Source of the DNA: Bacilli bacterium
Lineage (GTDB): Bacteria > Bacillota_I > Bacilli_A > RFN20 > CAG-826
Length of the DNA stretch: 64,000 nucleotides
Assembly (NCBI GenBank): GCA_017454295.1
Contig: JAFTDF010000042.1
Span: 484-64,483 of the forward strand
Reading direction: 5' to 3'
The notes under the pieces were generated by a model, which made no database searches, was not told the origin of the DNA, and worked only from the letters and a program-made list of their open reading frames with translations. A program made the position numbers and the translations under genes. Positions 34,681 through 59,830 of the stretch are shown here, in pieces (the first letter of the stretch is position 1; each line of letters begins with the position of its first letter).

Positions 34681-34681
34681 C

Positions 34682-35539: not shown

Positions 35540-35542
35540 AAA

Positions 35543-38828: not shown

Positions 38829-39566
38829 TTATTTCCCTCCTAGTAAGTCGGCGCGGCCGATGTCGCCGATGGTGGTGACGATGCCTTTGCCCAAATCGAT
38901 ATAATGCCGCAAGGTGGTGGCATAATCTTCCACCGTATAGGCCTTATCCAAGAAACGGGAGACCGTTTTCACGCCCACAAAGGGCACATGTCCCAAATAG
39001 CAGGCCGTGGCGATGCCACCCATATTGGTTTCCAAGACCACACGTTCCTTCGCCCCATAGAGGAATTCGCCCGAGGTCATTTCCTTGAGCTGTTCCATTT
39101 TGGTGAAGGCGACGTTGGTGGAAACGTAATTGCATACCGCATAATGGCCGATGCCCCGCTTCTCAAAGGAATCGGAGAGATAGCCCACGATATCCTCTTG
39201 GCAGAGGAAGTAAGGCGGGAAGCCCGGGATTTGGCCCATTCTCGTGCCGGCTTCGGCGGAAAGATCGACGTCGCCACTAAAGACACGGCCGGAAATGGCG
39301 ATATCCCCGGCTTTGAAGTCTTTGGAGAAAGCCGTGCAACGGCCCACCCCGATGACGAGGATCGCCAAATACTTCTGGATTAAACCCAGCATGATGGCGG
39401 AGGAAAGATAATTGGTGAACATCCCTTCGACGAGGCAGACTTCCTGATTGAAGATGTTCCCAAGGGTCAACTTGTAACGGTCTAAATAGGTTTCGGTGTG
39501 CTTCCCGGTCATGATGGAGTCGAAATAGAGGACGTCATCATGGGTGGCGCCGACGATCATAATCAT
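38829..39566 (-). CDS. Divergent MTA/SAH-nucleosidase-like (PNP_UDP_1 fold) protein
   Basis: By eye it aligns with MtnN (IVGATHDDV.., VLETNMGGIATAC.., VGVKTVSRFLD). The catalytic Asp of the SD motif appears replaced (VSR), and the GSAGG loop is GRCTA. Confidence 0.5.
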   Translation of the reverse strand: MIMIVGATHDDVLYFDSIMTGKHTETYLDRYKLTLGNIFNQEVCLVEGMFTNYLSSAIMLGLIQKYLAILVIGVGRCTAFSKDFKAGDIAISGRVFSGDVDLSAEAGTRMGQIPGFPPYFLCQEDIVGYLSDSFEKRGIGHYAVCNYVSTNVAFTKMEQLKEMTSGEFLYGAKERVVLETNMGGIATACYLGHVPFVGVKTVSRFLDKAYTVEDYATTLRHYIDLGKGIVTTIGDIGRADLLGGK

Positions 39567-41104
39567 CGCTTGGTTCCTCCTTCAAACGGGTTGTCTCTTA
39601 AGAAGGCCTCATATTCCTCTTTGGGGAGGGCCTTCGAATAATAGAAGCCTTGGATGGTGTCGCATTTGGCGCGGCGGAGGAATTCAACTTCCTCCTTGCT
39701 ATCGACGCCTTCGGCGATGACTTCACGGTCGGAAGCATGGCAAAGGCCGATGATCAATTTGACGATGTCTTTGGCACGGGGGTCCTCACGCATGGCATCG
39801 ATGAAGGATTTATCGACTTTCACCGCGTCGAAGGGGATTTTGCGGAGATTGATGATGTTGGAATAGCCGATGCCGAAGTCATCCATCAAGACACGCATCC
39901 CCCGTTCCCGGAGCTTCTTGATAATGGACACGGACAGGAACTGATTGGCTTGGGAGGTGGTTTCGGTGATTTCGATTTCGATGAGCGAAGGATCGATGCC
40001 ATAGGAATCGATGGTGTTCACGATCATCGAAAGGAAGTCCATGGAGTAGAACTCATAGAGGGAGAAGTTGACCGATACCGGCAATAAACGGCGCCCTTTA
40101 CGTTTGGCTTCGGCCAAATCCTCGCAGGTCTTTTTGAAGACGTAGATATCGAGCTCATGGAGCAATCCGGCGGCATCCATGCGCTCGATGAAACGCGCCG
40201 GTGGGACGATACCATATTTGGGCGAATGCCAACGGATCAAGGCTTCGGCGGAAATGAATTCTTTCTTCTCCAAGGAGAACTTAGGTTGGTAATAGACAAC
40301 GAATTCCTTGTCATCGAAGGCTTTGACGATTTCGGCGATATCGTCGCTGGAAGCGGCGGAGCGAAGTTTCTCGTCATAGTAAGAGAAGGTTTCGAAATTG
40401 CGCTCGGCATTCTCTTTGGCCAGCATCGCATCGTCGATCATCGGCATCAGCGATTCGGTGGGTCCGGCGTGGCGAATCCCAAAGAAAGGCTGGACATAGA
40501 TGTGATAATGGCGTTGATCCAAGATCGCATAGATGCGGTCGCGAATGGTGACGACGAGGTCTTCGACTTGGCCTTGGTCGCGGTCAAAGGCATAGACGAC
40601 GAAATTGCCACGGTCGAAGCAGAATAAGTGGCGACGGCGGTCATAGAGCCCGCTTTTGGCGGAGAATAAATCCGACAAGGCGAAAGCGATGCGGGAGTTT
40701 AAATCGTTGATTTCCTCGTTGGAGGTGGCGGCGCGGGAAGAAGAGAAGGAAGAAGCCGAGAAGACAATCAGGAATTGACTCTTCCCTGCGAAGCGGAAGC
40801 TCCGCCGCCAAAGATTGGCGTGCTGCTCAAAGGCATAAAGGTTATAGAACGCGGTCTTTTGCCCCAAGGAATAGAGGTTTTCCGTCTGTAACGAAGAAAC
40901 GACGGTACGTTGATTGAAATAGATGGTGATGCAGCGTAAGAAGAGCCCGGCAAAGAAGGTCAGGTAGAAAATCGCCCCGATCATCAAACCGTGGTTGCCA
41001 TCCATCACGCCGGTGGCAATCAAAATGATCGATACGACGATGGCCGCGACATAAAGACCACCGGTAATGATGGAGTAGAGGAAATAACGGCGTTTGGATT
41101 TCAT
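39563..41104 (-). CDS. Membrane-anchored degenerate-GGDEF / canonical EAL protein (c-di-GMP phosphodiesterase)
   Basis: YYQPKF...AEALIRW, VSVNFS, EIEITETT, LMDDFGIGYSNI, VKVDKSF, IAEGVDSKEE and IQGFYYSKALP are all present. The upstream GGDEF-like block reads FDRGNF. Confidence 0.85.
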   Translation of the reverse strand: MKSKRRYFLYSIITGGLYVAAIVVSIILIATGVMDGNHGLMIGAIFYLTFFAGLFLRCITIYFNQRTVVSSLQTENLYSLGQKTAFYNLYAFEQHANLWRRSFRFAGKSQFLIVFSASSFSSSRAATSNEEINDLNSRIAFALSDLFSAKSGLYDRRRHLFCFDRGNFVVYAFDRDQGQVEDLVVTIRDRIYAILDQRHYHIYVQPFFGIRHAGPTESLMPMIDDAMLAKENAERNFETFSYYDEKLRSAASSDDIAEIVKAFDDKEFVVYYQPKFSLEKKEFISAEALIRWHSPKYGIVPPARFIERMDAAGLLHELDIYVFKKTCEDLAEAKRKGRRLLPVSVNFSLYEFYSMDFLSMIVNTIDSYGIDPSLIEIEITETTSQANQFLSVSIIKKLRERGMRVLMDDFGIGYSNIINLRKIPFDAVKVDKSFIDAMREDPRAKDIVKLIIGLCHASDREVIAEGVDSKEEVEFLRRAKCDTIQGFYYSKALPKEEYEAFLRDNPFEGGTKR

Positions 41105-41925
41105 TGCTTCTCCTCCGGTTGTTCTTCGGGTTTCGGCGCGGCTTTCTTGCTGAGCATCTCTTGGAGCATCTCGTCTTTCAGGCGTTTTAATTCGGCCTCG
41201 GAAAGCCCTTCTAAAGAGACGTCTTTCTTTGGGGCTTCCGCCGTGACTTCTTCCGCGGGCTCTTTCATGGCTTTAAAGATATCCATGACGGAAACGATGA
41301 CCAAATAGAAGGCGGGGATCAAAAGCAAGACGAATAAGCCCCAAGGCGAGGCGACAAAGCCAAAGACGGCGCCTAAGAAATCGCTATGGAGCACCACTTT
41401 ACCCAAGATAAAGCGTTCCGTGAAGGCCTGATATTGGCCCGGGTGGGCCGCTTTGCCTTCGGGGTTAATCCCAGCCACGATAAAGGTATAACGCCCTTGG
41501 CCGGAAGCTTTGCTTTGGTCGATATGGATTTCCTGGACGCGGTGGGTCATCGGATAACCGGTGGGAATGGTCCGGTCATAAAGGCTCTTGTCTTCGGGGA
41601 CGGTATATTCGGTGGTATCGGTGCAGCGGTCCATGAAGGTGATGTCGATGGTTTCGCCCCGGAGAAAGGCCTGATAGAGCTTCTCCGGATCCTCGCGATA
41701 GGTGATGATGGCGGAGTTGACTTTGTATTCGGGTTCCATGGAGTTGGTCCGAACCACGAAATTGCCCACACCGAAGCGAATCGGCTGACTGAAATATTCG
41801 TCCTTATGGACCATGGATTCGATCTGCCCTGCCCCCACGGCGAGGAAAAGGACGCCGACGATGCCGACGAGGACCCATTCGATAATGCGACGGGCTTTAG
41901 ATTTCTCTTTCTTCACCCGTTTCAT
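41101..41925 (-). CDS. sipW: Archaeal/ER-type signal peptidase I (SipW-like, S26B) with a C-terminal TM and charged tail
   Basis: N-terminal TM, catalytic-Ser box VRTNSMEPEY, His box GYPMTHRVQEI, a second TM near aa 190-220, then a K/E/P-rich tail. Confidence 0.8.
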   Translation of the reverse strand: MKRVKKEKSKARRIIEWVLVGIVGVLFLAVGAGQIESMVHKDEYFSQPIRFGVGNFVVRTNSMEPEYKVNSAIITYREDPEKLYQAFLRGETIDITFMDRCTDTTEYTVPEDKSLYDRTIPTGYPMTHRVQEIHIDQSKASGQGRYTFIVAGINPEGKAAHPGQYQAFTERFILGKVVLHSDFLGAVFGFVASPWGLFVLLLIPAFYLVIVSVMDIFKAMKEPAEEVTAEAPKKDVSLEGLSEAELKRLKDEMLQEMLSKKAAPKPEEQPEEKQ

Positions 41926-44045
41926 AATTTGACGACCTTCCCGCCGAGTTTGGCTTTGATGTCATGGGCTAAGTTGTAGTCATCGAAGACCTTGGCATCG
42001 TCTTTGTCTTCGCTATAGGTGCCTTCTTCGACGTAATAGCCCATTAAGGTTTTCACGATAAAGGTGCCGGGGATGGGTTCCCGTTCCATTTTCGGTTTAC
42101 GTTGTTTCACCGGCACGAATTCTTCTTCGTCCTCATCATCGTATTTGGGAGATTCGTAGTTCTCAGCCTCCGCATCCGTTTGATGGTCAAAGACCGGCAC
42201 GAAAGCGGGCGAAGCTTCTTCCTTCTCCTCCACGGCGGCTTCTTCGATAGGTTCCTCGGGAAGAGCTTCTTCGATCAAAGGCTCGGAGATTTCCGGTTCG
42301 GGGGTCTCGGGTTCAGCCAAGACTGCAGGAGTTTCGTCGATCTCGGGCTCTTTCGATTTCCGTTTCCTACCTTTTTTCGCGGCAGGTTTGGAGGCTTTTG
42401 GCTTTTCTACGGGTGCGATGGGCACTTCTTCTTGGGCGACGGGTCCTTGCTCCTGAGGAACCACTTCTTCAGAGGCCCTTGCTTCAGGAGCCGAATCTTT
42501 GGGAGCCGAATCTTTGGGAGCGACTTCTTCCGGAACGAAAGCTTCGGATTCAGAAACCTCGGGGGCTTCTTCTGCCGTTTCTACAGAGGCGGGAATATAT
42601 TCCTCGGGTTCAGGCTGCTGTTCTTCGAGAATCGGTTCTTCTTGTTTTTGCTTTTTGCCCTTTTTCGAAACGGGTTGTTCTTCGTCCCAAGACTGGTTCC
42701 AAGTGGCTTTGGCCGCGGCGACGAGTTCGGCACGGACGCGGTTGAGCAAATCGGTTTCCTCTTGTTGGATGACCTTGGCTTCTTTGGCGGCAAGACGTTT
42801 CCGTTCGAATTCGCGTTTTTCCAAAATGGCTTCGGCTTGCTTTTCGAATTGCCGTTCCATCTTGGCGTTGCGGTGACGGAGTTGCTCGAGTTCTTTCTCG
42901 AATTCACGCAGATCACGCTTCTCTTCGTATTCTTCCGCGTAATATTCCTTCTCTTTCCGCGTGGGGTGTAAGGGCAAATCCTTGTTGAGGAGGCGATTGA
43001 GGTATTCCATATACCCTTCGTCGGCGCGGACGAAATGGATGGGGCCTTTCAAATAAGGCCCATAGATAAAGGCCTCGTCCTCGGCATGGGTGAGGATCTT
43101 GGGTTTATATTCCTTGACGGCTCCTTTGGTCACCGTCGATTTATCCTTGCCTTGCAAAGCAAGATAAGAACCAAGCAGCGAGAAATTGAGCTCCGCGAGT
43201 TCTTTATCCGTGAAAACGGAATAATCCTCGTTCATTCGGTAAGTGATACCCAACGTGGAATAGGTCTCCAAATAGCGATAGACCTCATAGCAATGATGGT
43301 ATTTGGGGTTCTTACGGATGATGTTGGTTTGGAGAATGGGGTTGCGGACGTTGTTCTCGGTTTTGAATTTCCGCATAAACGGCGAGTTGTAGTAATACAA
43401 AATGTAATTACGGATCTCGGCGATACGTTGGAAATAGGTGGAGTTGAGTTGGCTCACCTCGGTGTGGGAAACGGATTTGACTTTGACTTTGGTTTCGATG
43501 GAAATCTCGGAATCCCCGATTTGGGAATGGTTTTTCAAATAGAGGACTTCCTCATCGTGGAGTTTGGCGAACTTCAACGCGAATTCATAACGTTTCTCGA
43601 CGAAGAGCATCAATTTACGAATGAAGGTCGCGATAAAACGGTTCTCGTAGGTGAAGAGGTTATCCTCGTTGGAGAAATTTAAGATCTTCGAAGGGATGAC
43701 GTTGCCGTATTCATCGACTTCTTTGATGTATTGGGTATGGGAGGCCAGATGTTGAACGGATTCCCCCGTGATTTTTTTCGCCAATTCGATCGGGGTGATG
43801 TCGGAGACCGCATGCGTGACCGAACGGGGCGCTTTGATGATATCGCCTAAATCGAAGATGACGCCTTCGATTTTATCGATCCAACGGGCATCGAAGGAGG
43901 AAGTCTCAACACGGTCGAGGCGCAAATACGAGTTTTTGCCGCGAGAAAGCCCCGCGTAGAGTTCCGCTTCATCCTCATCTTTGATGATGGAGCGCATCTT
44001 CGCGGTATATTTGGCGTAGAGTTTTTTATCGCGGCTTTCTTCCAT
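41922..44045 (-). CDS. McrC/DUF2357-like partner protein with a coiled coil and a long acidic P/E-rich region; no recognisable nuclease motif
   Basis: The segment NLFTYENRFIATFIRKLMLFVEKRY resembles the (T/P)-x-ENR-f-hk-x-fL motif of McrC/DUF2357 N-domains. No signal peptide or TM. aa 360-640 are coiled coil plus low complexity. A small C-terminal globular domain follows. Overlaps both neighbouring genes. Confidence 0.45.
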   Translation of the reverse strand: MEESRDKKLYAKYTAKMRSIIKDEDEAELYAGLSRGKNSYLRLDRVETSSFDARWIDKIEGVIFDLGDIIKAPRSVTHAVSDITPIELAKKITGESVQHLASHTQYIKEVDEYGNVIPSKILNFSNEDNLFTYENRFIATFIRKLMLFVEKRYEFALKFAKLHDEEVLYLKNHSQIGDSEISIETKVKVKSVSHTEVSQLNSTYFQRIAEIRNYILYYYNSPFMRKFKTENNVRNPILQTNIIRKNPKYHHCYEVYRYLETYSTLGITYRMNEDYSVFTDKELAELNFSLLGSYLALQGKDKSTVTKGAVKEYKPKILTHAEDEAFIYGPYLKGPIHFVRADEGYMEYLNRLLNKDLPLHPTRKEKEYYAEEYEEKRDLREFEKELEQLRHRNAKMERQFEKQAEAILEKREFERKRLAAKEAKVIQQEETDLLNRVRAELVAAAKATWNQSWDEEQPVSKKGKKQKQEEPILEEQQPEPEEYIPASVETAEEAPEVSESEAFVPEEVAPKDSAPKDSAPEARASEEVVPQEQGPVAQEEVPIAPVEKPKASKPAAKKGRKRKSKEPEIDETPAVLAEPETPEPEISEPLIEEALPEEPIEEAAVEEKEEASPAFVPVFDHQTDAEAENYESPKYDDEDEEEFVPVKQRKPKMEREPIPGTFIVKTLMGYYVEEGTYSEDKDDAKVFDDYNLAHDIKAKLGGKVVKL
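42487..42516. repeat. Perfect 15-bp tandem duplication inside the 707-aa gene
   Basis: GGAGCCGAATCTTTG occurs twice, followed by the partial copy GGAGC. It encodes APKDS-APKDS in frame. Confidence 0.9.
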
Positions 44046-45562
44046 TAGTTGTTCTTAATCAAGTTTTCGATATAGGCGTGGGACATGGGGAAGGTGCCTT
44101 TGCCATAGAGTTTATCCAAATAAGCATCGAGTTGCTTCAACTCGTCTTTTAAGAAGGCGATGTTGAGGGATTCGAACTTCTTCAAGATCTTGCTGGCAAA
44201 GATGAAATCGAAGCCATCGACTTCCTTGCCGCCACAGGCGACGAAGGTCGGGATGAAGGATTCGAGCTGCTTCAAGATACGGTTACCGAAGGCGAGTTTG
44301 AATTTCTTGATGACGAAGTTATCGAGGTCTTCGAATTTCTGGGTCATATTCTCGGAAATCGGGAAGTTGCGGATGGCATCGTCATAGAGACTGCGGAGTT
44401 GGAAATAGGGAATCGGCATCGGCTCTTGCTGGGCGGCCTGGAACGGGCGGCCCTTATCGTCGAAGAAGAGGGAGATGGCACGGTCATAGACCTTATCGGA
44501 GATGGTGAAGGTGGAGTCGTCGTTGTTGGCGGTGCCGAAGAAGACGACGTTTTGGGGAATGGCGAGTTTGCCTTCTTTGAGGTTGGCGGGGTCGCTTGGT
44601 AAGGTGTTGGGGATCAAGTCGATCTGCCAGGCGGATGGATCGCGCATTTCCATGATGGATAGGAATTCGGCGAAATAGTATTCGATACGGGCCAAGTTCA
44701 TTTCATCGAGGGTGATGATGTCGAGGTCTTGGCGGTAGCCGCAGGTATAGAGGGCTTTCAAGAATTCGGATTCGTTGAATTTCTTGGTGAATTCGTTGTA
44801 GTAACCTAACAATTCGGAACGGTCTTTCCAAGAGGGCTGGACCGGGATGATGGCGGAGTCGAATCCGAAGAACTTACCAAGGGCATAGGCAAGCGAGGTT
44901 TTACCGGTACCGGAGATCCCTTCGAGGATGATTAATTTCGAAGTGGCCATACCGGCGAACAATTGACGGATGGTTTCGATCTTGTAATACAAGCCCAATT
45001 GGCTGGCGGCATAGTTGCGGAAGGAGTTGCAGAGTTCTTCTAGGGACAAGCCCTGATGCATGGGGATATCCATGTTGACGCCGCGATAAGCGTTATCGAC
45101 GGAAATCAGCTTGGGGAAGCGGGTACCACTGGTATCGGCGGCCTCTTCAGCAGCCGCGGCTTCTTCGCCCGGCTTTAAGCCCATATAGCCGACTTTGAGG
45201 TTGAGGATCTTGTCGCGTTCACGGGTTGCTTCATAGAGTTCGTAGTTGAGGCGTTCGACCTGGCGGCGAAGTTCGTCTTTGTCGAGCTCGCGGCGGACGA
45301 AACGGATATATTTCCGAAGCAGGATGAAGAGCAAGAATCCCAGTCCGCCGATGAGGGCGATGAAGAGAATCAAGAACAACACCCAGAAGAACCAGCCCCA
45401 AAAGCCGAAGTCTTTGGAAGCGACGGAAAGGTAAGAGCCATAGTCATTGAAGTTCTGGGGCACATCGGACCAAGGGGAGGCGAAAGCCTTCTGGAACCAT
45501 CTCCCGATATCGGAGAAGACCCGGATGAGCAATTGACGTAGATATTCGAAGTAAGCGGTCAT
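44045..45562 (-). CDS. Membrane-anchored McrB-like AAA+ (AAA_5) NTPase
   Basis: One TM (FWGWFFWVLFLILFIALIGGLGFLLFILL), then a coiled coil. Walker A is GISGTGKTS and Walker B plus the McrB-type helix is IITLDEMNLARIEYYFAEFLSIME. The NxxD-type motif is FFGTANNDDSTF..DKVYDRA. There is no N-terminal DNA-binding domain. Confidence 0.75.
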   Translation of the reverse strand: MTAYFEYLRQLLIRVFSDIGRWFQKAFASPWSDVPQNFNDYGSYLSVASKDFGFWGWFFWVLFLILFIALIGGLGFLLFILLRKYIRFVRRELDKDELRRQVERLNYELYEATRERDKILNLKVGYMGLKPGEEAAAAEEAADTSGTRFPKLISVDNAYRGVNMDIPMHQGLSLEELCNSFRNYAASQLGLYYKIETIRQLFAGMATSKLIILEGISGTGKTSLAYALGKFFGFDSAIIPVQPSWKDRSELLGYYNEFTKKFNESEFLKALYTCGYRQDLDIITLDEMNLARIEYYFAEFLSIMEMRDPSAWQIDLIPNTLPSDPANLKEGKLAIPQNVVFFGTANNDDSTFTISDKVYDRAISLFFDDKGRPFQAAQQEPMPIPYFQLRSLYDDAIRNFPISENMTQKFEDLDNFVIKKFKLAFGNRILKQLESFIPTFVACGGKEVDGFDFIFASKILKKFESLNIAFLKDELKQLDAYLDKLYGKGTFPMSHAYIENLIKNN

Positions 45563-46614
45563 ATTTCCATCTCCCTTAAGATCTTGAATTGCAGATTGGC
45601 TTGGAAGGAGCCACCCATATTGGCATTGACGCAGTCGTGGTCCCAGCCCTCTAAGTAGATGCTGATTTGCAGCGGCTTCGGTTGGTTCCGGTGGCAGGCG
45701 ACGTAGAAGGGGTTCACCTGGATGTCGTTGCTGCCTAGTTCGTCGAAGGTATAGGCGGTTTCTTGTTTGATCACGAGTCCCTTCTTAGTGGAAGCCTCTA
45801 AGTCAAAGGGGTGCGTCCCATAGGAATGCCCGGCATTGAAGGAGGTGAGTTCGCCATCGGCTTCGGTGGCCACCTCGAGGCGTTCCCCATGGACGATGGC
45901 GTCGTAATCGTTATATTCGCCATAGAGGATTTCCTTTTGGAATCCCGTTCCGCCTTCCATGTAGATGTCATAGAAGCCATCGCGGTCGTTATCGAGGACC
46001 CCGCCATAATAGGTGATGCCCTCGCGATGGGGATCGATGATGACATAATTGTCATCCTCAAAGTCATAAATGGAAACCCGAATCGCCTTCTCCAAGGTGT
46101 TAAGCCGTTCGACCCGTTCCTCATAGGTGTAGGTCGATAGCATGTTCCTCGCGGTGATCATGTTCGCTTCCACGTAGGCGCGCACGAAACAAAAAGCGGG
46201 ATCGATGCCAACGTAAACGTTGTCGTCGGCGCAAAGCCATAACGTCTGCGAGTAATGGCCATAGCTGACGGCATCGGGTCCGAAGGGGATACCCTTGTCG
46301 GAAGTGATCAAATTGGCGTATTCGTAAAACTTCGGCGCGGTCTTGCCATCCCTCCAGCGGGATTCGAACATGGTCGAGACCGGGGCGAAGCGCACCACTT
46401 GATCGAGTTCTTCGGCGGCGAGTTTGTCCTTCATCTTCGCCACGTCCTCGGTGGTGCCGATTTTCAAGCCTTTTTCGCCCGCCATCTCGATTTCGAGGGT
46501 GCGGACGGCCAGATTGGTCGCGTTGTTATACCAGGCCAAAGACGAGGCAAAGGATGCCCCGGATAAGGCCGTAAGGCCGATAAGGGAAGCAAGTAGCAAA
46601 CGCGATCGTTTCAT
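45559..46614 (-). CDS. Secreted TasA-like fibre-family paralogue (about 351 aa)
   Basis: The signal ...LSGASFASSLAWYNN carries the motif. C-terminal motif LQISIYLEGWDHDCVNANMGGSFQANLQFKI. ATG at 46614 is preferred over the GTG at 46626. Confidence 0.65.
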   Translation of the reverse strand: MKRSRLLLASLIGLTALSGASFASSLAWYNNATNLAVRTLEIEMAGEKGLKIGTTEDVAKMKDKLAAEELDQVVRFAPVSTMFESRWRDGKTAPKFYEYANLITSDKGIPFGPDAVSYGHYSQTLWLCADDNVYVGIDPAFCFVRAYVEANMITARNMLSTYTYEERVERLNTLEKAIRVSIYDFEDDNYVIIDPHREGITYYGGVLDNDRDGFYDIYMEGGTGFQKEILYGEYNDYDAIVHGERLEVATEADGELTSFNAGHSYGTHPFDLEASTKKGLVIKQETAYTFDELGSNDIQVNPFYVACHRNQPKPLQISIYLEGWDHDCVNANMGGSFQANLQFKILREMEI

Positions 46615-46615
46615 A

Positions 46616-47782
46616 CTAGAGGGCACGGTTGATCTGGAATTGGAGCCCTAGATTGAATTGGTGGCTGATCTCGTCATCGATGACGGCATGGTCCCAACCT
46701 TCGAGATAAACGGACATCGTCAGGTGGGCCAAAGCGGCATCGTCGTTAGCGGTCACGCATAAAGGCGTACCACCGGTGAGGTAGCCGGCCCCGTTATCGG
46801 TCGGGGCAATGGATTTGAGCGTCTCGTAATGGGCCAGTTCAGGCGTGACAAACGAGGCAAAATCGGACGTGGTATAACCATCGACGCCTTCTTTGTGTTT
46901 GCCATAGAAGGTGGAGGCGTTGGTGCGTCCGGGGTTGACGTAATAATCATTGACGTCATCTAGTCCGGTATCGGCGCCGAAATGCGTCAAATGATTGGCG
47001 GGGTTATTATCGGGGTGAGCCGCCGTCTTGGCATAACGGCCATAGACGATCTCTTCGGAGGCATCGTAGTCATAGAACCCGTCGTTATTCAAATCGAGCA
47101 GGCCCGCGACCTTGGTGTCGCCGGCGAGGGCTTCTTTCCCGACCCCGGGATTGAGGATTAATTTGGTGGCCCCATCGAAATGGAGGCGTAAGGCCCGATA
47201 GATTTGGTGGGAGGCATCCCCGCCGGTGGTGGCGAGGGCGTCGGTGATCCAGATGTTCTCGTTCTTGGCGTAGATGTTGCCCGTGGCACCGGTATGGATG
47301 ACGCGGAAGACGAAGTCGATTTTGCAATAGGCCGTCTTGCCGGCATCGTAGATTTCGGTGCTATAAGCCATCGGGGCTTTCTTTAACGCGAGGTTATCCC
47401 CATTGGCATAGCCATAGGAAGACACCGGCGTTAATTCATTGGTCGCATACCCTTGCCGCGCTAAATAGGCTTGGATGGCGACCGAGTTGAGGCCGGAACC
47501 GGCCTTCGCCCAATAGATATCTTCTCCATTGATCTCTTCGTGGGTCAGCCCGAGGTTGACGACATGGTGTTGGGCGTCGATCACGTCTTGGGTGAAGTCC
47601 ACATCGGAAACGAGTCCGATCTGAAGCTGTTCCGACTGCGCGACAGAGGTGCCTTGATAAGACATCGTGACACGGGTGGACGAGGCATACCACGCGACCG
47701 TACCGGAGATGGCTCCGGCGAAAGAGGCAGTCAACGCTAAAACCATCGCAGCTGAGAAGATATGAGCTTTTCTTAGTTTCAT
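46616..47782 (-). CDS. Secreted TasA-like fibre-family paralogue (388 aa)
   Basis: Signal ...SFAGAISGTVAWYASS. C-terminal motif LTMSVYLEGWDHAVIDDEISHQFNLGLQFQI. Confidence 0.65.
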   Translation of the reverse strand: MKLRKAHIFSAAMVLALTASFAGAISGTVAWYASSTRVTMSYQGTSVAQSEQLQIGLVSDVDFTQDVIDAQHHVVNLGLTHEEINGEDIYWAKAGSGLNSVAIQAYLARQGYATNELTPVSSYGYANGDNLALKKAPMAYSTEIYDAGKTAYCKIDFVFRVIHTGATGNIYAKNENIWITDALATTGGDASHQIYRALRLHFDGATKLILNPGVGKEALAGDTKVAGLLDLNNDGFYDYDASEEIVYGRYAKTAAHPDNNPANHLTHFGADTGLDDVNDYYVNPGRTNASTFYGKHKEGVDGYTTSDFASFVTPELAHYETLKSIAPTDNGAGYLTGGTPLCVTANDDAALAHLTMSVYLEGWDHAVIDDEISHQFNLGLQFQINRAL

Positions 47783-47829
47783 AGGATGACCCCCTTTCTT
47801 CTAATTAAATTTCGTCGCCATCAGGGTGC

Positions 47830-47863
47830 GGGCAAAGTCGCATGAGTCGGTACGGCTTTGCCC
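47830..47863 (-). promoter_or_regulatory. Stable intercistronic hairpin after the putative major subunit gene
   Basis: GGGCAAAG-N18-CTTTGCCC (8 bp GC-rich stem) in the 137 nt gap. No U tract. Confidence 0.5.
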
Positions 47864-47919
47864 GATCCAATGGTTAGAAATAAACGTGTTTTGTGGTTGT
47901 TTTGGAGATAAACGAGAGA

Positions 47920-48978
47920 TTATTCAGCGTCGGTATGGGCTTCAGCGGTGAAGCGGATACCAACGTTGAACTTGGCACCAACGGTCTTGGTTTCGTCCCA
48001 AATGGACTTAACATCAACGGTGTCGGAACCAGAAGTCGCAGTTTTGGTGCTGAGTTCGGTCCAGCCTTCAAGATAAATCTTGAGGTTCACATAGAGGTTC
48101 TTGGTGGCGGAAGTGGAACCGATTTCCTTGCCCACGATAGCGGTCGCGGTGGAATCGTCGGCGACACCGACGACGTTGCTGGTGACTTTGGTGTTGGCAG
48201 TCGCAACAGCGGTCTTCTCGTTGACGCCATAGAGCACATCGGCACGGCCAGTGCTAAAGTCATAACCTTCAGTTTGATCGATGATACCGTCGTTGTTGAG
48301 GTCGAGCTTGCCATACACCTTGACGGGGTCGGCGCTCTTGGCAAAAGTGGCGTAGTCGGCAAAGACGGGATTGCCGGAATCGGGGGCCGTAACGGCGGAA
48401 ACGCCAACTCGAAGAGCGGAGGAGACATCAATTTTGCCAGAGGGGTTGTCGGTGGCGGCCTGAAGCGTCACGTCAGAGACGTAGATCTTCTTCGCAAGAT
48501 AAGAATCGGTGTCCGCACCAGTCACGTCTTTTACACGAATTTCAAGAGGAATCACAATGTAATCGACTTCGGCGCTAGCTTCTCCCCAAGAAGTCATCTC
48601 GGCGTATTGATAAATCGGGTTCTTGTAGAGCGTAGCGGCAACTGCACCAGCGGCAAGTTCGCCGGAGGTAACCGGGCGAAGTTCGTTGGTAGCAGCGGTA
48701 CGGTTGGCGCCGCCATTAGCGGTGGTCGCGGCCAAATAAGTGGCAATGTCGGTAGAGGTTAAATCCTGCTTCCATTCGCCAAAGCCATCGGTTTTGGTGG
48801 AGCGGATACGGATTTGGATGCTTTCAGAGCAGTGAGCAGAGGCACCAGAATAGGCGACGGTGCTACGGGTGGAGTATTGATACCAAGCAACGGTACCGGA
48901 GATGGAACCAGCGATGGCGGCACCCATGGCGATGGCCATAGAAGCGATCGTGGCTTTCTTTAAGGTGTTAGTTTTCAT
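47920..48978 (-). CDS. Secreted TasA-like fibre-family paralogue, putative major subunit (352 aa)
   Basis: Signal ...GAAIAGSISGTVAWYQYS. C-terminal motif LYVNLKIYLEGWTEL...GAKFNVGIRFTAE. Codon usage (GGT/ACC/GCT/CGT rich) looks biased towards high expression. Followed by a hairpin. Confidence 0.65.
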   Translation of the reverse strand: MKTNTLKKATIASMAIAMGAAIAGSISGTVAWYQYSTRSTVAYSGASAHCSESIQIRIRSTKTDGFGEWKQDLTSTDIATYLAATTANGGANRTAATNELRPVTSGELAAGAVAATLYKNPIYQYAEMTSWGEASAEVDYIVIPLEIRVKDVTGADTDSYLAKKIYVSDVTLQAATDNPSGKIDVSSALRVGVSAVTAPDSGNPVFADYATFAKSADPVKVYGKLDLNNDGIIDQTEGYDFSTGRADVLYGVNEKTAVATANTKVTSNVVGVADDSTATAIVGKEIGSTSATKNLYVNLKIYLEGWTELSTKTATSGSDTVDVKSIWDETKTVGAKFNVGIRFTAEAHTDAE

Positions 48979-49789
48979 AAGCGTTTATTTCAACTCCTAA
49001 TTTGATTGTGGCTCCAACAGGAGGAGTCATGTCGTCTCTGGATTGACGGTCTTCACCTTCAAGCCAGGCGACGAGGGTGTACCTGCGGATGTCGTCTGCG
49101 CGGAACCCGGGCACAGTGTAACGGGCTACGGTCTCGCCGGAGAGGAAGAGCTCCGCTAAAGGGTGGTCCTCGTCTTCGGTCCGATCATAAGAAGCCTCGG
49201 CAATGAACTCGCGACGGGTTCTGGTCCCGTCGGGGAGGTAATTGTATTCGGCGGCTTCTTTGGCGTAGACCTTGTAATTGTGCTCGGTACTGTTGGCCTC
49301 GTTATCGAAGATCATGACCCTGAGGGTGTCATCGAGCTTCCGCTCGGTGCCATCATCGGTGGGTTTGCTCTCCGTGATGTTAAACGAGATGTCGTACTTC
49401 GCGGTCTTCTTACCGACGTTTTTCACGTAGAACGTATATTTGAAATAATTCAAAGTCGTCCAGGCGTTCTTATCGTCGTAATTGGCCCCGAGGGTATAAG
49501 GGGAATCCTCGTTATCCAAAACCTCTCCAGAGGGAAGGGCATGGAACGTGGTCTCCTCATACGGTCGTAAATCGTCGATACGAAGGAGCGACTCTGGTTT
49601 TTCAAACGAAGCCTTTTCGCTTAGCGACAACCCCACTTCACCGTTATTGACGGAGACCGTGAATGTCCCAACGAATCGGCCAAGGAAAGCAATGATGCTT
49701 AAAGACACCAGCCCCGACGTGGAGGCACCCACGACGATCCAGGCGGCGATCTTCCTTTTCCGTTTTCTCACTAAGTCAAGTTCGTACAT
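48968..49789 (-). CDS. Membrane-anchored TasA-like family member with a degenerate signal motif (273 aa)
   Basis: The TM is followed by GRFVGTFTVSV, compared with GGTFAWF in its paralogues. It shares the C-terminal motif YTLVAWLEGEDRQ...ATIKLGVEINAYE. First gene after riboswitch copy 3. Confidence 0.6.
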   Translation of the reverse strand: MYELDLVRKRKRKIAAWIVVGASTSGLVSLSIIAFLGRFVGTFTVSVNNGEVGLSLSEKASFEKPESLLRIDDLRPYEETTFHALPSGEVLDNEDSPYTLGANYDDKNAWTTLNYFKYTFYVKNVGKKTAKYDISFNITESKPTDDGTERKLDDTLRVMIFDNEANSTEHNYKVYAKEAAEYNYLPDGTRTRREFIAEASYDRTEDEDHPLAELFLSGETVARYTVPGFRADDIRRYTLVAWLEGEDRQSRDDMTPPVGATIKLGVEINAYEN

Positions 49790-49829
49790 AAACGATCGTG
49801 CTTCGGTACAGAAAGCACTATGTGTCCCA

Positions 49830-49966
49830 ATGGGAGAAATAAATACCAGTTGCCTATCATCCAGTGTGATCTGGTGGGTATTTCTCCCTAAGGCAACTGG
49901 CTATCTAGTGAACTAGACCCTGTAGTTTTGCGTCACCGCATCGCTGCGGTTTTGCTTTTGACTCGC
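49830..49966 (-). promoter_or_regulatory. c-di-GMP-I (GEMM-I)-like riboswitch, copy 3, with a terminator-type expression platform
   Basis: The minus strand reads GTCAAAAGCAAAACC-GCA-GCGA-TGC-GGTGACGCAAAAC-TACAGGGTCTAG-TTCA-CTAGATAGCCAGTTGCC. CCAGTTGCCT then re-pairs with AGGCAACTGG (49855-49846), followed by TATTTATTTCT. Confidence 0.8.
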
Positions 49967-49970
49967 CCGT

Positions 49971-49999
49971 AATATAGCGAATTGAAAAATATTTTGCAA
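49971..49999 (-). promoter_or_regulatory. Sigma-70/SigA-type promoter of the 14 kb fibre operon
   Basis: The minus strand reads TTGCAA-N17-TATATT, 5-10 nt upstream of the aptamer. Confidence 0.65.
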
Positions 50000-50027
50000 C
50001 ACTGAAACTCCCCCCATAGTTTCTATG

Positions 50028-50058
50028 CAAAAATGAAAACACCCCACTAGGGGGTGCT
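50028..50058 (-). terminator. Rho-independent terminator after the 127-aa membrane protein gene
   Basis: The minus strand reads CACCCCCTAGTGGGGTG followed by TTTTCATTTTT. Confidence 0.8.
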
Positions 50059-50076
50059 TCCAATTGGTTTGTTCTT

Positions 50077-50460
50077 CTACTTGTTATCGGAGTTCAGATC
50101 CTCGAGAAGTTGCTTCCGGAGGGCTTCCTTCTGCTCATCCGAGAGATCGTTGACTTTGATCGGCTCTTTCTTCGTGGATTTCCGCACATAGATGACTAAG
50201 CCGATGATATTGCCGGCCAGCAACACAAATAGCGGAATGACATAGGAGACGAGATAGACCGTGGGGTTATTTTGGAGATAACCGATATAGCCTTCGGCGG
50301 TAATGATCTCGGCCGCGGTTTTACCAACGGTGTTGGCCAACATAATAATGTTGAATACGGCCAGCCCCAAAGTCGCGATGATATCGATGACAAGAAGGGT
50401 AATGAGCAATGGTTTTTTAGCTTTGTTCATACGGGAAACTACCGATTTTTCGGCTTTCAT
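50077..50460 (-). CDS. Small membrane protein (about 3 TM) with a charged C-terminal tail
   Basis: Hydrophobic segments. Co-directional, 50 nt downstream of the 320-aa fibre-family gene. Confidence 0.55.
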   Translation of the reverse strand: MKAEKSVVSRMNKAKKPLLITLLVIDIIATLGLAVFNIIMLANTVGKTAAEIITAEGYIGYLQNNPTVYLVSYVIPLFVLLAGNIIGLVIYVRKSTKKEPIKVNDLSDEQKEALRKQLLEDLNSDNK

Positions 50461-50510
50461 AAGTTTATAACCGAATAACGAGAATTACAAAACGATATTT
50501 TTGATGAGGA

Positions 50511-51473
50511 TTAGGACGCCTTGTATTCACGAGTATAGAACTTCATAGTCGCAGCGACTTTGTTGAAGTGCTCGGCCGTCGAAACAATGGAAGGATCGGT
50601 GCCTTCAAACCAAACCACAACAGTGAAGGTGAGCGCAGTTTGAGTGGCATCTTCAGTGGCTTTCCCAAATTTACCTAAGCAAGTGTATTCCGCAGAATCT
50701 CCAGTAGAATAATCTGTGGTAAGCGCGGTTCCTTCGCCATGCTTCGCTTCCATAGTATTTGAAGCCATGATGGTCTTCCCGGTATAGGTTTTCCCGCCGG
50801 TATAATTGGTAGCGATAGTGTACGCTGTGGCATCGTCAACATAATGAGGCTGGTTTGCGGGGGTTGCGTCATTGGTCGCGCGTTTAGGAGCCCAAACGCG
50901 CTTGTTTGCGACGCTGTTGGCAGTGGGTGTCGCACCAACAAACGCCACGCGGAAACCTTTAATAGTGTCCTCTACGGCAGACTCTTCCTGGGCAGCAACC
51001 GCGCTGTTGGGATCGAAGAACAGCAGAGCTGCGCCTTCGGTGTTGAATTTATAGGTAAAGGTCATTTGCCAAGAAACGGCCCACCACATATCTTTGCCGG
51101 TTTCAAAGTCATCTTTCGCCTTCCAAGCGCTGGCGGCATCTCCAGAAGCCACAACTCGACGAACGCCAGAATTGTTTTCACTAGAGGCGGTATAAATTGT
51201 GCCGGCCTCATGGTCATAAGAAGCGTGAGTAAGAACATCTCCTGTGGCCATGACAAAGGTGTGACTGTCTCCGTTGTCAGTGGTGGTTCCGCCAATTGCG
51301 TTGCTCATGGTAACGGACAAGTCGCCACCCATTGGTTTGACTTCGAAAACGCTTCCCTCAACGGTTGCGGAAGTCACGGACGAGAACCAAGCAACGGTTC
51401 CACCGACGGATCCAGCAGCGGCAAGCAATAAGACGCCAAGAGCAGGGACAACGAGTAATGATTTTTTCTTCAT
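50511..51473 (-). CDS. Secreted TasA-like fibre-family paralogue (320 aa), second putative structural subunit
   Basis: Signal MKKKSLLVVPALGVLLLAAAGSVGGTVAWFSS. C-terminal motif LTFTVVVWFEGTDPSIVSTAEHFNKVAATMKFYT. Strong RBS AAGGAG. It has its own riboswitch-like leader. Confidence 0.65.
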   Translation of the reverse strand: MKKKSLLVVPALGVLLLAAAGSVGGTVAWFSSVTSATVEGSVFEVKPMGGDLSVTMSNAIGGTTTDNGDSHTFVMATGDVLTHASYDHEAGTIYTASSENNSGVRRVVASGDAASAWKAKDDFETGKDMWWAVSWQMTFTYKFNTEGAALLFFDPNSAVAAQEESAVEDTIKGFRVAFVGATPTANSVANKRVWAPKRATNDATPANQPHYVDDATAYTIATNYTGGKTYTGKTIMASNTMEAKHGEGTALTTDYSTGDSAEYTCLGKFGKATEDATQTALTFTVVVWFEGTDPSIVSTAEHFNKVAATMKFYTREYKAS

Positions 51474-51735: not shown

Positions 51736-54700
51736 TTATGCGCTAATCGCGGTGATCAAAGCGGCCTTTTGTTCAGAGGTTTTACCAACCCAAGCATCAG
51801 CGTCGGCTTTGCTGTTGCACAACAAGAACCACTTGTCAGATGCAGATCCCGTATCGAGCGTCGTCCAATAACGGGTAGAGGTGCTTCCCTTCAAAAGATC
51901 CTCGGAAACGCTGAAGGGGAAATAGGCCGTGTTCTGATCGATGAATGCTCCATTGGGATAGCGTTTGACGTTGTCGCCGGTCCGAGACCCGTTTTCGCAA
52001 GCAATATCGGCCTTTTGGCCCACCAAAATCGCAGAGCCGTTATTCAAGCCGGTGAACGGGCTGGTGACTTTTGGTTTCTTATTACTTTCGGTAACGCCCT
52101 GCATATCGTCTTTAATGCCTGACTCCGGCAGCAAATCGGGGTCACACCCAACATAAAGGGAATCCGAGTTCGGAAGGTGAATGTATTGAATCGCTTTGCA
52201 ATTCTTAAAAGCGGATTGACCGATGGAACGAAGCGAGGTGCAGCCGGACAAATCCAAGATCCCCGTTGTCTTTTCACGAGCATTCGCATCAAAAGGCACC
52301 AAGGCCGTTTTGTCGCCGTTCCACTTGAAATAAGAGTACGCGGCCCCGCCGGTCAAATTGGCGAGCTTCGGACATTCCTCAAAGGCCCCAAATCCTATTT
52401 TTTCAATATGCGTCATACGCGTGAAGTCGACGGTAGTGAGATTCGGGTTTTTGCGAACCGCACCAAGGGAAGTTCCATAATTCGCATATTTCTCCCAATT
52501 GTCCTTTCCGGTGTTGCCGGCGCGTTGAATCACATCAAAGCGGCTCGACTCAATCAATCCGCTATAGTCGCTTGCATACCCAGAGCCAATAAATCGAATT
52601 TGGGAATTGACCGGGATCTCGATTTCGGTAAGCGCAGCATTGTGGCTCATCGCAGACCCATAAATGGTGCTGACGGTGGCTGGGATACTGATTTTCGTAT
52701 AAGCGGTATTCGCCAAAGCGTGAGGGGCAATCGCTGCCGTTCCGGAAGTCACTGCACAAGTACCGGTGGAATTCGCCGTTTGGGAAAGCAAGGTTTCTTT
52801 TCCGGAACCAGTGTAATAAATGCCGTCGTCTTGCAAAGCAAAGGAATTGGTATTGGTGGCTAGAGAAACGTCGTCAATCAGGGCAGAGGCATTGGGCATG
52901 ACGGAAAAGGCACCGGTTCCTAAGAACGCCACGTCGCCTTCAATATCCAAGGCGGCGAAACGGTTGTTAAAGAACGCCAGGGCCTCAATCCTCGTCACGG
53001 AGTTTGGCAAAACGCAATACCCGCTCTTGCCCGCTACGCTGACTGGAGTGTCATTATTGTCTTTGTAGGTGACGAATTGTACGCCGCTTGTGTTCGTCGT
53101 TCCGGTGTTATGGCGGAAGAAAGCCCGTTCGCCGATGGTGGTCACCGACGTCGGCAAAATCACGGTATTGCCAGGAATTGGCTCGCCCGCAGCCTGTCCA
53201 AAGCATCCGGAACCGATTTCGATGATTTTCGGGTTTAACGTGGTATTTAACGTCAGATCAACGATGCTTTGGTCCGACACGCAATAGCATCTGGTCGCGA
53301 TGTAGTTATTGCCGCTTTTCACAAACGCCACCGTATTATGAGAGTCGTTGATTGAGGTGTTAAGGGAATTGTCCGTCAAATCAAGATATTCCACTCCATT
53401 GGTCCAAGTAATCACGTCGCCGGTGTCATCGCACGACACCCCATAATAAGTAGGGATGGTCCGCCGCAAAGAGGCAAGGGAGGCACTCGAAGTAGAACCA
53501 AATTGATCCCGATAGCATTCCGAAGGATCGGCGTTCCACCAACGGCCCACCCCGGTCTCTTGGTTGCTAGAGTGAATGCTGCTTTGGGCTTTATCGACAT
53601 AGATAACCGCGTCAGGGTATGAGAACTGCTCCGCCGCGTTTGTGGAATAATTCCCGAAAATCGGAGCCCCAAAAGTTCCACTGCCGTTATTGTTGCCCCA
53701 TAGGGTGTATTTTTGGTCGACTCCGCTGACCAAAGAAGATACATAGAAGAACAGTTCTCGGATTGCCACGCATCCCTTGAAACAATTTTGCCCGACATAG
53801 CAGAAGTTTTTGTTCGAGACGAAGCGAAGCAAAGACTTGCAGTTTTCGAACGTCGACATGCCGAAGGAGGAACGGGGCTTTGTGCCGGTGGAAACGTTTT
53901 TATTCCAAACTTGAACGGATCTTAAGCAATTCGCTCCTTTGAAGGCATAAGGCAAAACCGGGCTGGTCCAGGTCTCATAAGTCTCTTCCGGGCGTTTGTT
54001 TCCATCGAGGTTCGTCGGCTTCATGTTACCGCAAGTGTTTTCATGAAGACGGGGGGAAATATATAAATCAACCTCACCCGTTCCTTTGCCGGTTCCATCG
54101 CCGTTTTCGGTGCAGTTATAACCCAAATTCGCAAAGGCATAGCGGCCGATAAAAACGGTTTGCAGGTCACCCGGGCTATCGGAATCGTTGGCCATAAAAG
54201 AAAACTCGCTGACCGCCCGGAAATCGTAGAAAGAGTAGGCGCCGATATATTTCAGACATTTCGGGAGCCGCAATGAGGTCAAAAGGGTATTGGGGACCGA
54301 CCCCGTTTTCCCTTGGAACACTTCATAACTGACTTCGAGCAAACTCGTGCAACTAGAGAAATTCAATGCAGAGATGTTTAGGCAATTATAAAAGGCACGG
54401 TTCCTGATTTGGACGAGTCCGGAATTAAAAGTGACGCTTCGAATATCCTCGTTGGCGGCAAAAGAGTTGGAGTCTAAAACCTTGACGGTCCGATTCGTTC
54501 CGTTCGAATCTTTGAGTTGGTTGGGAATCGTTAGGGCGCCGCTTGCCACATCATAATATCCGGGAATTGTGCGGTTCGGTGTTTCGAACTTAAAGATTTT
54601 GGCATACGTTCCAGGGTTGTTTTGTATGGTTTTGGAACCAGCCGCAGTGCCTGTCGTCGCTTGGTCGAATGGAATGTTCGCGGTTTCGATGGTGTAATAC

Positions 54701-58733: not shown

Positions 58734-58763
58734 ACCGGTATTCGTTTAACCTCCCTTCGTGCC

Positions 58764-59705: not shown

Positions 59706-59707
59706 GA

Positions 59708-59826: not shown

Positions 59827-59830
59827 TCCT

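Follow-up and report, generated by a model that had tools for sequence, protein, structure and literature searches.

Five neighbouring genes on the minus strand of a 64,000-nucleotide (nt) stretch of DNA from a Bacilli bacterium (GenBank assembly GCA_017454295.1, contig JAFTDF010000042.1, positions 484 to 64,483; this whole stretch is called the window in the following) encode proteins, here named A to E, that end in closely related sequence blocks, which raises the question of what kind of structure these proteins form. In a first-pass annotation, made from the sequence alone, they had been described as a five-member paralogous family with a SipW-type signal and as a new branch of TasA-like proteins. 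Our analysis suggests, with a probability of roughly 0.55, that A to E are the structural proteins of a surface fibre or matrix of the TasA-superfamily type, which would be induced by cyclic diguanosine monophosphate (c-di-GMP) and processed by a SipW-like signal peptidase in uncultured Bacilli of gut and rumen. This reading is carried by the motifs of the five proteins, by the resemblance of the D fold model to donor-strand fibre subunits, and by a gene order, recurring in about 80 loci overall from rumen and gut Bacilli, that joins the subunit genes to a c-di-GMP riboswitch and a SipW-like peptidase gene. The unit initially described was too small in that it missed the riboswitch, the peptidase and a pair of genes for an AAA+ NTPase and its DUF2357-like partner.

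The five proteins and their fold

All five open reading frames (ORFs) were confirmed at the minus-strand positions first assigned to them (Table 1), and the motif [YW][LF]EG[WETD] occurred exactly five times among the 174 six-frame ORFs of at least 80 amino acids in the window (36,058 residues), each time in one of A to E and 30-51 residues before the C-terminus. A looser form of the C-terminal motif was kept in 249 of 298 C, 155 of 160 D, 38 of 40 B, 30 of 38 A and 10 of 14 E sequences (pooled homologues and orthologues), and the block was not found in 120 TasA-family proteins. Likewise, the signal motif that had been reported for four of the five proteins was present in A, B, C and E, which have one N-terminal hydrophobic segment followed by ...[GS][GST]x[VIL]AW[YF], and absent from D, which carries a degenerate version only. 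The mature N-termini have W-[YF]-x-x-x-T in common. In the window, AW[FY] at residues 27-34 is carried by A, B, C and E and by four further proteins, S313, L1024 (in the reduced form SMAWF), S285 and L1292.

Comparison of the orthologue alignments by hhalign gave probabilities of 99.8% for A and B and 100% for B and C, in both cases near full length, and of 99.2% for A and C, covering about the first 220 residues. Similarity of E to A, B and C was significant only across the first ~40-60 residues, and D reached 18-56% with the other members. When family hidden Markov models (HMMs) were run against the pooled sequences (n = 1,847), reciprocal D/E links were obtained with best E-values of 3e-4 to 8e-4. 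At E < 1 the C model matched 106 of 160 D proteins (best 5.5e-4) and the E model 105 of 160 (best 3e-4), mostly at D residues ~230-256, which correspond to the [YW][LF]EG block, and E was linked to A, B and C via residues 1-57. The hhalign alignment of C and D was collinear across 150 columns, comprising the LRV strand, the D.DG loop, the LEG block and the last strand, at a probability of only 4%. On these alignments A, B and C can be regarded as firm paralogues, and D and E are probably distant relatives of them; of the proposed five-member family the A/B/C core stands, while D and E are weakly linked to it by sequence. A, B and C also carry a DxDxDG-type loop (LDLNNDGxxD), and the EF-hand was weakly matched by 7 of 51 C homologues. 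A profile search with C retrieved 816 library proteins at E <= 0.001 (one per 50%-identity cluster), and 528 homologues of D were found; the protein databases searched name C and D homologues solely as hypothetical proteins, and the 150 listed relatives from the C profile search, all close and nameless, provided no bridge to TasA.

C and E had been taken for major subunits with codon usage of the high-expression type. The codon usage of C is moderately biased (effective number of codons, Nc, 41.3), which agrees in part with this proposal for C, whereas E (53.2) is not biased and lends it no support; the values for B, A, D and the AAA+ gene are 43.0, 45.2, 55.2 and 34.3, respectively. Some species possess long C-type subunits of 500-870 amino acids (L001:11193-13811, L010:10001-12124, L006:3392-5173 and others), whose match to C is limited to the first ~240-300 residues, and extra domains have therefore been inserted or appended. 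These long forms suggest the presence of variable exposed modules on the main subunit.

The AlphaFold2 model of C (51-sequence alignment) is beta-rich, with a predicted local distance difference test score (pLDDT) of 86.6. Residues 1-45 have a pLDDT <50, yet W32, Q34, Y35, T37, R38 and G45 are invariant, and residues 32-50 form a conserved N-terminal segment that is disordered in the monomer model. The model of D (44 sequences, pLDDT 82.7) shows a helix at residues 3-23 and a beta-sandwich from residue 41. Among 350,542 PDB chains compared by Foldseek, the TasA fibre 8aur_A ranked first for D (E = 1.8e-3, prob 0.99, 209 columns) and the archaeal bundling pilin AbpA 7ueg_A second (E = 3.1e-3, prob 0.92), the remaining matches having a prob of at most 0.44. 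Marginal as they are, the first two matches appear to be specific, and both concern donor-strand fibre subunits. Since the membrane helix of D is directly followed by the first core strand (invariant SFLGRFVGTFTVS), D would be able to accept, not to donate, a strand, and the model makes it a candidate for a membrane-anchored terminal subunit, best suited to the membrane-proximal end of a fibre. A PDB sequence search with a profile of the five proteins returned nothing useful.

Two other kinds of surface filament were considered and rejected. Type IV pilins have a class III signal with a short charged leader that is removed ahead of the hydrophobic helix (G|F/M-x-x-x-E), and in the proteins described here the conserved motif lies after, not before, the hydrophobic segment; general family scans of the cluster genes gave no family match to a prepilin peptidase or a PilB-type ATPase. 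Sortase-assembled pilins were discarded in view of A to E and the four other AW[FY] proteins, in which neither LPXTG nor a C-terminal hydrophobic segment is present.

The operon, its control and its surroundings

In a scan of 185,579 species genomes, the C family was found in 42 species of the Genome Taxonomy Database (GTDB), the carriers being, with few exceptions, metagenome-assembled genomes (MAGs) of uncultured rumen and gut bacteria labelled Bacilli, Erysipelotrichaceae, Bacillales, Ca. Enteromonas or Ca. Enterosoma. The gene order [E]-TM127-D-C-B-A-AAA+-U707-SipW-like-EAL-PNP_UDP, with one or two copies of C (sometimes of the long type), was kept in ~36 of the 42 genome loci, and the others were short or truncated. 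Orthologues were 34-57% identical to the window proteins for D, 30-50% for B, 28-48% for A and 25-53% for C, which is, E aside, the most variable orthogroup of the D-A operon and often duplicated or lengthened. The AAA+ protein is the most conserved of the operon, with 62-79% identity across species genomes. A metagenome scan with the AAA+ alignment added at least 410 relatives, some of them from human gut. In all 43 metagenome loci of at least 9 kb, U707 follows AAA+, and SipW, EAL and PNP come next wherever the contig reaches; similarly, the subunit genes precede AAA+ wherever upstream sequence is present in these 43 loci. Distant metagenome versions (AAA+ 48-57% identical) have fewer subunit genes, arranged as TM127-D-A or E-E-E-TM127-B, and the window therefore carries an expanded form. 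With the exception of the borderline AAA_5, the EAL and the PNP domains, the core proteins of the cluster have no Pfam or NCBIfam assignment above cut-off. The PNP_UDP_1 gene closes the conserved block, directly after EAL, in nearly every locus that extends far enough. E is transcribed apart from D-A, upstream of TM127, and E-like genes adjoin TM127 in many loci in either orientation.

A leader of its own or a trailing hairpin had been ascribed to each of C and E in the first-pass annotation; the structured leader belongs to D and is a c-di-GMP-I riboswitch. Scored with Rfam RF01051 (gathering score 35 bits), the three c-di-GMP-I aptamers of the window reached 58.5, 56.8 and 53.8 bits, and in each of the 13 other loci checked an aptamer (45.8-68 bits) lay ahead of the subunit genes, in front of the first of them. 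The D leader folds with a minimum free energy of -60.2 kcal/mol (z = -4.2) and contains a hairpin with a U-run. Because the 5' arm of this terminator-type hairpin overlaps the aptamer 3' strand, the arrangement suggests a switch in which transcription is terminated without ligand and reads through with ligand (ON). Of the leaders and trailing hairpins claimed for C and E, a hairpin after C was indeed found, but it was rejected as a canonical terminator owing to the absence of a U-tract, and its function is putative; the z-score of the whole 143-nt C-B intergenic region is -1.4. The strong terminator-like hairpin (50034-50062) follows TM127, not E.

The SipW-like peptidase has an orthologue in every locus that reaches that far. 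Its Ser62 (T[DN]SMEP) is invariant and T127-H128-R129 (MTHR) are nearly invariant; the Ser of the SMEP box and the His of the THR box are presumably the catalytic residues, as in S26B enzymes. The window protein matched NF046067 with 27.3 bits (cut-off 190; E = 2.2e-6) and TIGR02228 with 18.2 bits (cut-off 51.85; E = 0.0018), and among its orthologues the former model was matched by 13 of 13 (best 1.6e-10) and the latter by 9 of 13, all under the curated cut-offs. No match was obtained when PDB sequences were searched with the peptidase. By these matches the enzyme is classified as a divergent relative of the SipW/archaeal-type signal peptidase I and not as an equivalog. Export of A, B, C and E via a SipW-type route is very likely. 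The predicted cleavage after ...T-V-A fits the -3/-1 rule, with W in the P1' position and the aromatic Y or F in P2'. It is a P2' residue of this aromatic kind that, according to PMC10269814, makes TasA a poor substrate of ordinary signal peptidase and dependent on SipW.

In 27 genome loci and most of the metagenome loci, an orthologue of TM127 immediately precedes the riboswitch and D. The cytoplasmic tails of the peptidase (residues ~241-262) and of TM127 (residues 106-123) share the motif L[ST][DE]E[DQ]K..L[KR].[EQ][LM]L, which 23 of 29 peptidase and 14 of 27 TM127 orthologues possess; no other locus ORF had it (1,352 scanned), and the peptidase at L010:18997-20253 carries four tandem copies. 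This tail motif may act as a peptide on which a cytoplasmic partner, for example AAA+ or U707, docks.

The AAA+ protein, whose gene always lies between the subunit genes and U707-SipW, matched Pfam AAA_5 at the borderline (22.9 bits, cut-off 22), while its profile matched McrB (6hz4, 6ut6, 7vsr) at E = 2e-4 to 5e-4 and the PADLOC candidate defence model PDC-M26A at E = 1e-41. No PADLOC defence-system model was found for U707, the peptidase or D, and C had a weak match only (E = 0.011). U707 is without a hydrophobic segment and cytoplasmic. Three of 13 U707 orthologues matched DUF2357 (best E = 1.2e-5), which we take to be a domain of McrC-like partner proteins; none of the 13 matched a nuclease family, and a PDB sequence search with U707 found nothing. 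Its C-terminal ~50 residues form a small conserved domain (...FIVKTLMGYYVEEGTYSEDKDDAKVFDDYNLAHDIKAKLGGKVVKL) after a long low-complexity linker, for which no family was matched. Stop and start codons overlap along A/AAA+/U707/SipW, beginning with the stop codon of A and the start of the AAA+ gene. We argue that the pair belongs to the surface system and is not a passenger defence module, because its position is fixed, its genes are translationally coupled, the NTPase has a membrane anchor and conservation is high.

Table 1. Features of the window that are discussed in the text, in descending order of position.
Feature	Positions	Strand	Description
GGDEF protein	60001-61269	minus	
c-di-GMP-I aptamer	59752-59827	minus	leader of S313-L1024-BspA
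Second riboswitch-led operon	51736-59827	minus	S313 58764-59705 (GGTFAWF); L1024 55659-58733 (SMAWF); BspA-type leucine-rich-repeat (LRR) protein 51736-55662
E	50511-51473	minus	320 amino acids; divergent, subunit-like; signal ...GGTVAWF; WFEGTD block
TM127	50077-50460	minus	127 amino acids; two hydrophobic segments; cytoplasmic tail motif LSDEQKEALRKQLLEDL, common to SipW-like peptidase
Intrinsic-terminator-like hairpin	50034-50062	minus	12 pairs and U-run; longest stem; ends E-TM127 unit
c-di-GMP-I (GEMM-I) aptamer	49889-49966	minus	in 287-nt D leader; RF01051 58.5 bits
Putative expression platform	49837-49900	minus	hairpin CCAGUUGCCUU...AGGCAACUGG, then UAUUUAUUU; overlaps aptamer 3' strand
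D	48968-49789	minus	273 amino acids; N-terminal membrane helix; AW[YF] motif absent
C	47920-48978	minus	352 amino acids; signal ...SGTVAWY; YLEGWT block; DxDxDG-type loop at residue 226
C-B intergenic hairpin	47830-47863	minus	GGGCAAAG...CUUUGCCC; U-tract absent
B	46616-47782	minus	388 amino acids; signal ...SGTVAWY; YLEGWD block; C paralogue; loop DLNNDGFYD at residue 230
A	45559-46626	minus	GTG start 46626, alternative ATG 46614; 355 amino acids; signal ...SSLAWY; YLEGWD block; loop DNDRDGFYD at residue 212
AAA+ NTPase	44045-45562	minus	505 amino acids; ~50 conserved N-terminal residues, hydrophobic segment 50-86, coiled coil, AAA_5
U707	41922-44045	minus	conserved N-terminal ~445 amino acids (DUF2357-like); acidic, Pro-rich linker; small conserved C-terminal domain
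SipW-like signal peptidase I	41101-41925	minus	hydrophobic segments 11-39, 182-220; motifs NSMEP, MTHRV; cytoplasmic tail LSEAELKRLKDEMLQEML
EAL protein	39563-41104	minus	membrane-anchored, c-di-GMP phosphodiesterase type; Pfam EAL E = 4.9e-63; always next after peptidase
PNP_UDP_1	38829-39566	minus	nucleoside phosphorylase/nucleosidase superfamily; Pfam E = 6e-6
Degenerate GGDEF-EAL protein	35767-38826	minus	
c-di-GMP-I aptamer	35560-35637	minus	leader of S285-L1292
Third riboswitch-led operon	30802-35637	minus	S285 34682-35539 (SGAYAWF); L1292 30802-34680 (GSVAWF)
HD-GYP-type protein	28721-30103	plus	HDVGK and HHERYDGHGYP motifs read from sequence

The two other riboswitch-led operons of the window contain the paralogous pairs S313/L1024 and S285/L1292, each consisting of a small (285-313 amino acids) and a large (1024-1292 amino acids) protein behind its own aptamer. 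Close to their N-termini the large proteins share the motif G.G....PY.I....HLYNL, and a DVDGDGKLD loop occurs in L1024. A small and large pair near the cluster was also found in loci L009, L031, L034 and L069, with an aptamer directly upstream in L034. S313, L1024, S285 and L1292 are candidates for being cut by the peptidase as well, and might serve as tips or adhesins. In addition, an unusual density of genes for c-di-GMP turnover was noted across 33 kb, where the HD-GYP-type, degenerate GGDEF-EAL, EAL and GGDEF genes (Table 1) surround the three c-di-GMP-I riboswitches. Elsewhere in the window, a fluoride riboswitch (RF01734; 1949-2022, minus strand; 37.5 bits, gathering score 34) lies directly upstream of the ORF at 707-1951 on the same strand. 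Genes for a DUF2130 protein (22283-23707, minus strand) and an ORF6N-domain protein (27522-28520, plus strand), located in the interval from the Opp transporter region to the operons for surface proteins, may be mobile-element remnants.

A model of fibre assembly and its alternatives

The genes with their motifs and synteny, the aptamers and the resemblance of the D fold are observed; from them we infer a course of events whose proposed elements are cleavage and polymerisation, calcium dependence, the roles of the subunits and the switch direction. At high c-di-GMP, the riboswitch in the D leader would permit transcription through D-C-B-A-AAA+-U707-SipW-EAL-PNP. A, B, C and E would be exported and cut by the co-encoded peptidase after the Ala of ...T-[VL]-A|W-[YF]. 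The beta-sandwich of an adjacent subunit would then be completed by the new N-terminus W-[YF]-x-x-x-T-... in the role of donor strand, perhaps assisted by the DxDxDG calcium loop of A, B and C. D, which keeps its membrane helix and is without a donor strand, would be the terminal subunit tying the fibre to the membrane. C, most variable of the D-A operon, often duplicated and moderately codon-biased, would fit the part of main exposed subunit best, and A, B and E would be minor subunits. More speculatively, the four other AW[FY] proteins under the sister riboswitches may dock via the same strand. The EAL protein would lower c-di-GMP and thereby close a feedback loop.

In the fibre model just outlined, the AAA+/DUF2357 pair is part of the system by linkage and might, for example, power or gate export, assembly or anchoring. 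A more far-reaching proposal, which we put forward only tentatively, is an NTPase-dependent filament machine, in which an AAA+ ring and the DUF2357 partner hand over, assemble or anchor the SipW-cut jelly-roll subunits. The pair may then dock on the tails of the peptidase and TM127, amounting to a type-IV-pilus-like logic made from unrelated parts, in which multiple subunits share one signal and are served by their own peptidase and a motor, all directly controlled by the c-di-GMP riboswitch. A literature search for links between McrB-type proteins and TasA-like loci found no precedent.

Several results weigh against the proposed TasA-superfamily fibre. The fold matches of D are marginal, with E-values above 1e-3 and template-modelling (TM) scores of 0.26-0.36, and D has a possible cleavage site (I-I-A|F-L-G-R), so that it might also be cleaved. 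The C model had no significant match in PDB by Foldseek (best a family 3 carbohydrate-binding module, CBM3, E = 0.047; CanA prob 0.08). PF12389 (Peptidase_M73), which is present in all listed genuine TasA homologues, had no match at E <= 1 in A to E, nor in 51 C-family members. Similarly, TIGR04088 remained sub-threshold in E (15.5 bits, cut-off 19; E = 0.014) and had no match in A to D nor in the 51 C-family members. Compared by hhalign with a 33-member TasA alignment, C reached 43% (E = 2.4e-4) on the strength of its signal peptide and N-terminus, and D 0.2%; the best E-value of the TasA HMM against the pooled families was 0.0034, and likeness to the SipW-dependent signal was apparent only at the motif level (...GGT.A.[FY]) and in hhalign of the signal regions. 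Moreover, a polymer, cleavage and calcium binding of A to E are predictions of the model. Finally, to our knowledge, no known TasA-type system uses an AAA+ NTPase, and the model therefore leaves two invariant genes unexplained.

Since PF12389, TIGR04088 and the hhalign comparisons of the protein bodies fail, A to E are not members of the TasA/camelysin family; they constitute, at most, a new branch within the TasA superfamily as defined by structure. The earlier idea of a new TasA-like branch is thus fair at the superfamily level, where the D fold matches and the peptidase speak for it, but not at the family level, given the missing PF12389 and TasA bodies that cannot be aligned. In the same way, the SipW-type signal agrees with the peptidase in the operon and the aromatic P2' residue while falling short of the TIGR04088 cut-off, and for the suggested jelly-roll fold the best matches of D, to TasA and AbpA, are marginal, with no significant match of C.

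The lack of any significant match of C to a fibre subunit, together with the deduced nature of polymerisation, would also be compatible with a non-filamentous surface coat or adhesin complex, in which SipW-processed beta-sandwich proteins are held on the membrane by D or other membrane proteins without polymerising and the C-terminal block is the core of their common fold. The sister operons, which encode a BspA-LRR protein and large proteins that could be adhesins, fit such a coat as well. However, both best fold matches of D are donor-strand fibre subunits, an N-terminal segment that is conserved and yet unstructured in the monomer is hard to explain by a coat, and the presence of several paralogues together with one member without donor strand is typical of fibres, and we regard this alternative as unlikely. 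Still less probable is the possibility that these are secreted proteins resembling carbohydrate-binding modules (CBMs) or lectins, which attach cells to glycans of plant fibre or mucin and use the calcium loop for the ligand. The rumen and gut habitats, the DxDxDG loops of A, B and C and the non-significant fold matches of C (family 3a CBM, ConA-type lectins, glycosidase accessory domains and jelly-rolls, the best of them to the first three kinds) point in this direction, but all those matches have a prob of at most 0.16, a Pfam CBM or lectin match was absent, and the dedicated peptidase, the conserved N-terminal strand and the NTPase pair would be left unexplained. Moreover, binding sites of this kind are compatible with a fibre that carries them and need not be an alternative to it. 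That the AAA+/DUF2357 pair is an McrBC-like anti-phage or restriction module merely adjoining the surface operon and unrelated to A to E, as the McrB, PADLOC and DUF2357 matches might suggest, is highly improbable, since in all of the ~80 loci reaching there the pair is flanked by A and the gene of the SipW-like peptidase (identity 48-79%), with stop/start codon overlaps, a membrane segment in the NTPase and no detected nuclease family in U707, while defence islands are variable and mobile.

Comparison with known systems

Among the closest counterparts are the Bacillus subtilis TasA/TapA/SipW system and the CalY/TasA proteins of B. cereus, which likewise have a SipW-type peptidase in the operon, signals ending in ...G-G-T-x-A with an aromatic P2' residue, several paralogous beta-sandwich subunits and an association with biofilm or adhesion, the TasA fibre being the best fold match of D. 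In contrast to these systems, the proteins described here do not match PF12389 or TIGR04088, their bodies cannot be aligned with TasA, and the [YW][LF]EG block was absent from the 120 TasA proteins examined. In addition, A, B and C are larger and have a DxDxDG loop, and no TapA-like gene was recognised in the window locus, to which a c-di-GMP riboswitch, an McrB-like NTPase with its DUF2357 partner, TM127, EAL and PNP are added. If the proposed reading is true, the TasA biofilm-fibre superfamily would extend into a large group of uncultured, host-associated Bacilli.

Loci of the TasA superfamily combine major and minor subunits, a tip or anchor, a type I signal peptidase (SPase I) and c-di-GMP enzymes, and some members, such as CanA and AbpX, have calcium-assisted donor strands (bioRxiv 10.64898/2026.01.04.697558). 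The AbpX, AbpA, CanA and Tafi branches (bioRxiv 10.64898/2026.01.04.697558; PMC9245690; PMC12518558) are thus similar in the make-up of the locus, in a donor strand (putative here) whose second residue is aromatic and in the calcium-assisted, chaperone-free assembly proposed; for D the second-ranking fold match is AbpA, and CanA occurs among the weak matches of C. The present system differs in its hosts, Bacilli of gut and rumen that are represented solely by MAGs, in that a DUF5305 accessory protein was not detected and in the presence of the NTPase pair; in addition, the peptidase here has the two-segment transmembrane SipW layout as opposed to the ten transmembrane segments of the AbpX-type SPase.

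Likewise, the bsa operon of Clostridium perfringens (bsaA-sipW-bsaB-bsaC; PMC11580942) is a SipW-linked operon of Bacillota with two remote TasA-like paralogues, and BsaA oligomers are formed via donor strands, SipW-linked and membrane-anchored (PMC11580942). Its secretion is aided by an NTPase-driven machine encoded by type IV pilus genes (PMC11580942). The AAA+ protein may have a comparable role here. However, that helper is a type IV pilus system encoded elsewhere, whereas the McrB-like AAA+ gene lies within the operon, and no von Willebrand factor A (VWA) protein is present in the cluster described here.

With McrBC (McrB 6hz4; DUF2357 proteins) the pair shares the AAA_5 fold, the Walker A motif GxxGxGKT[ST] (GISGTGKTS), a downstream DUF2357-similar partner and the translational coupling of the two genes. 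In contrast to McrBC, the AAA+ protein has at its N-terminus a membrane segment and a coiled coil in place of the DNA-binding domain, its partner has no detected nuclease domain, and the pair is fixed in a surface-protein operon and not in a mobile defence island. It would represent either a restriction-type motor that was recruited for a surface structure or an indication that TasA-type assembly is not always energy-independent; if the NTPase-dependent filament machine were real, it would occur widely among Bacilli of gut and rumen.

Riboswitches responding to c-di-GMP control pilA1 and CD2831 of Clostridioides difficile and a collagen adhesin of B. thuringiensis. The system described here resembles these adhesin and pilus genes in the position of a GEMM-type aptamer before genes for surface structures and in a probable ON response at high c-di-GMP, while it differs in the kind of fibre, in a small regulon of three aptamers and in an EAL gene inside the controlled operon. 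It would give the host lineage a testable adhesion or biofilm apparatus with a defined input, c-di-GMP via the riboswitch. Novel with respect to the TasA loci of Bacillus, the wider TasA-superfamily loci and the bsa operon are the unannotated subunit families with their diagnostic [YW][LF]EG block, the direct control by a riboswitch and the presence of an McrB-like NTPase and its DUF2357 partner within the operon.

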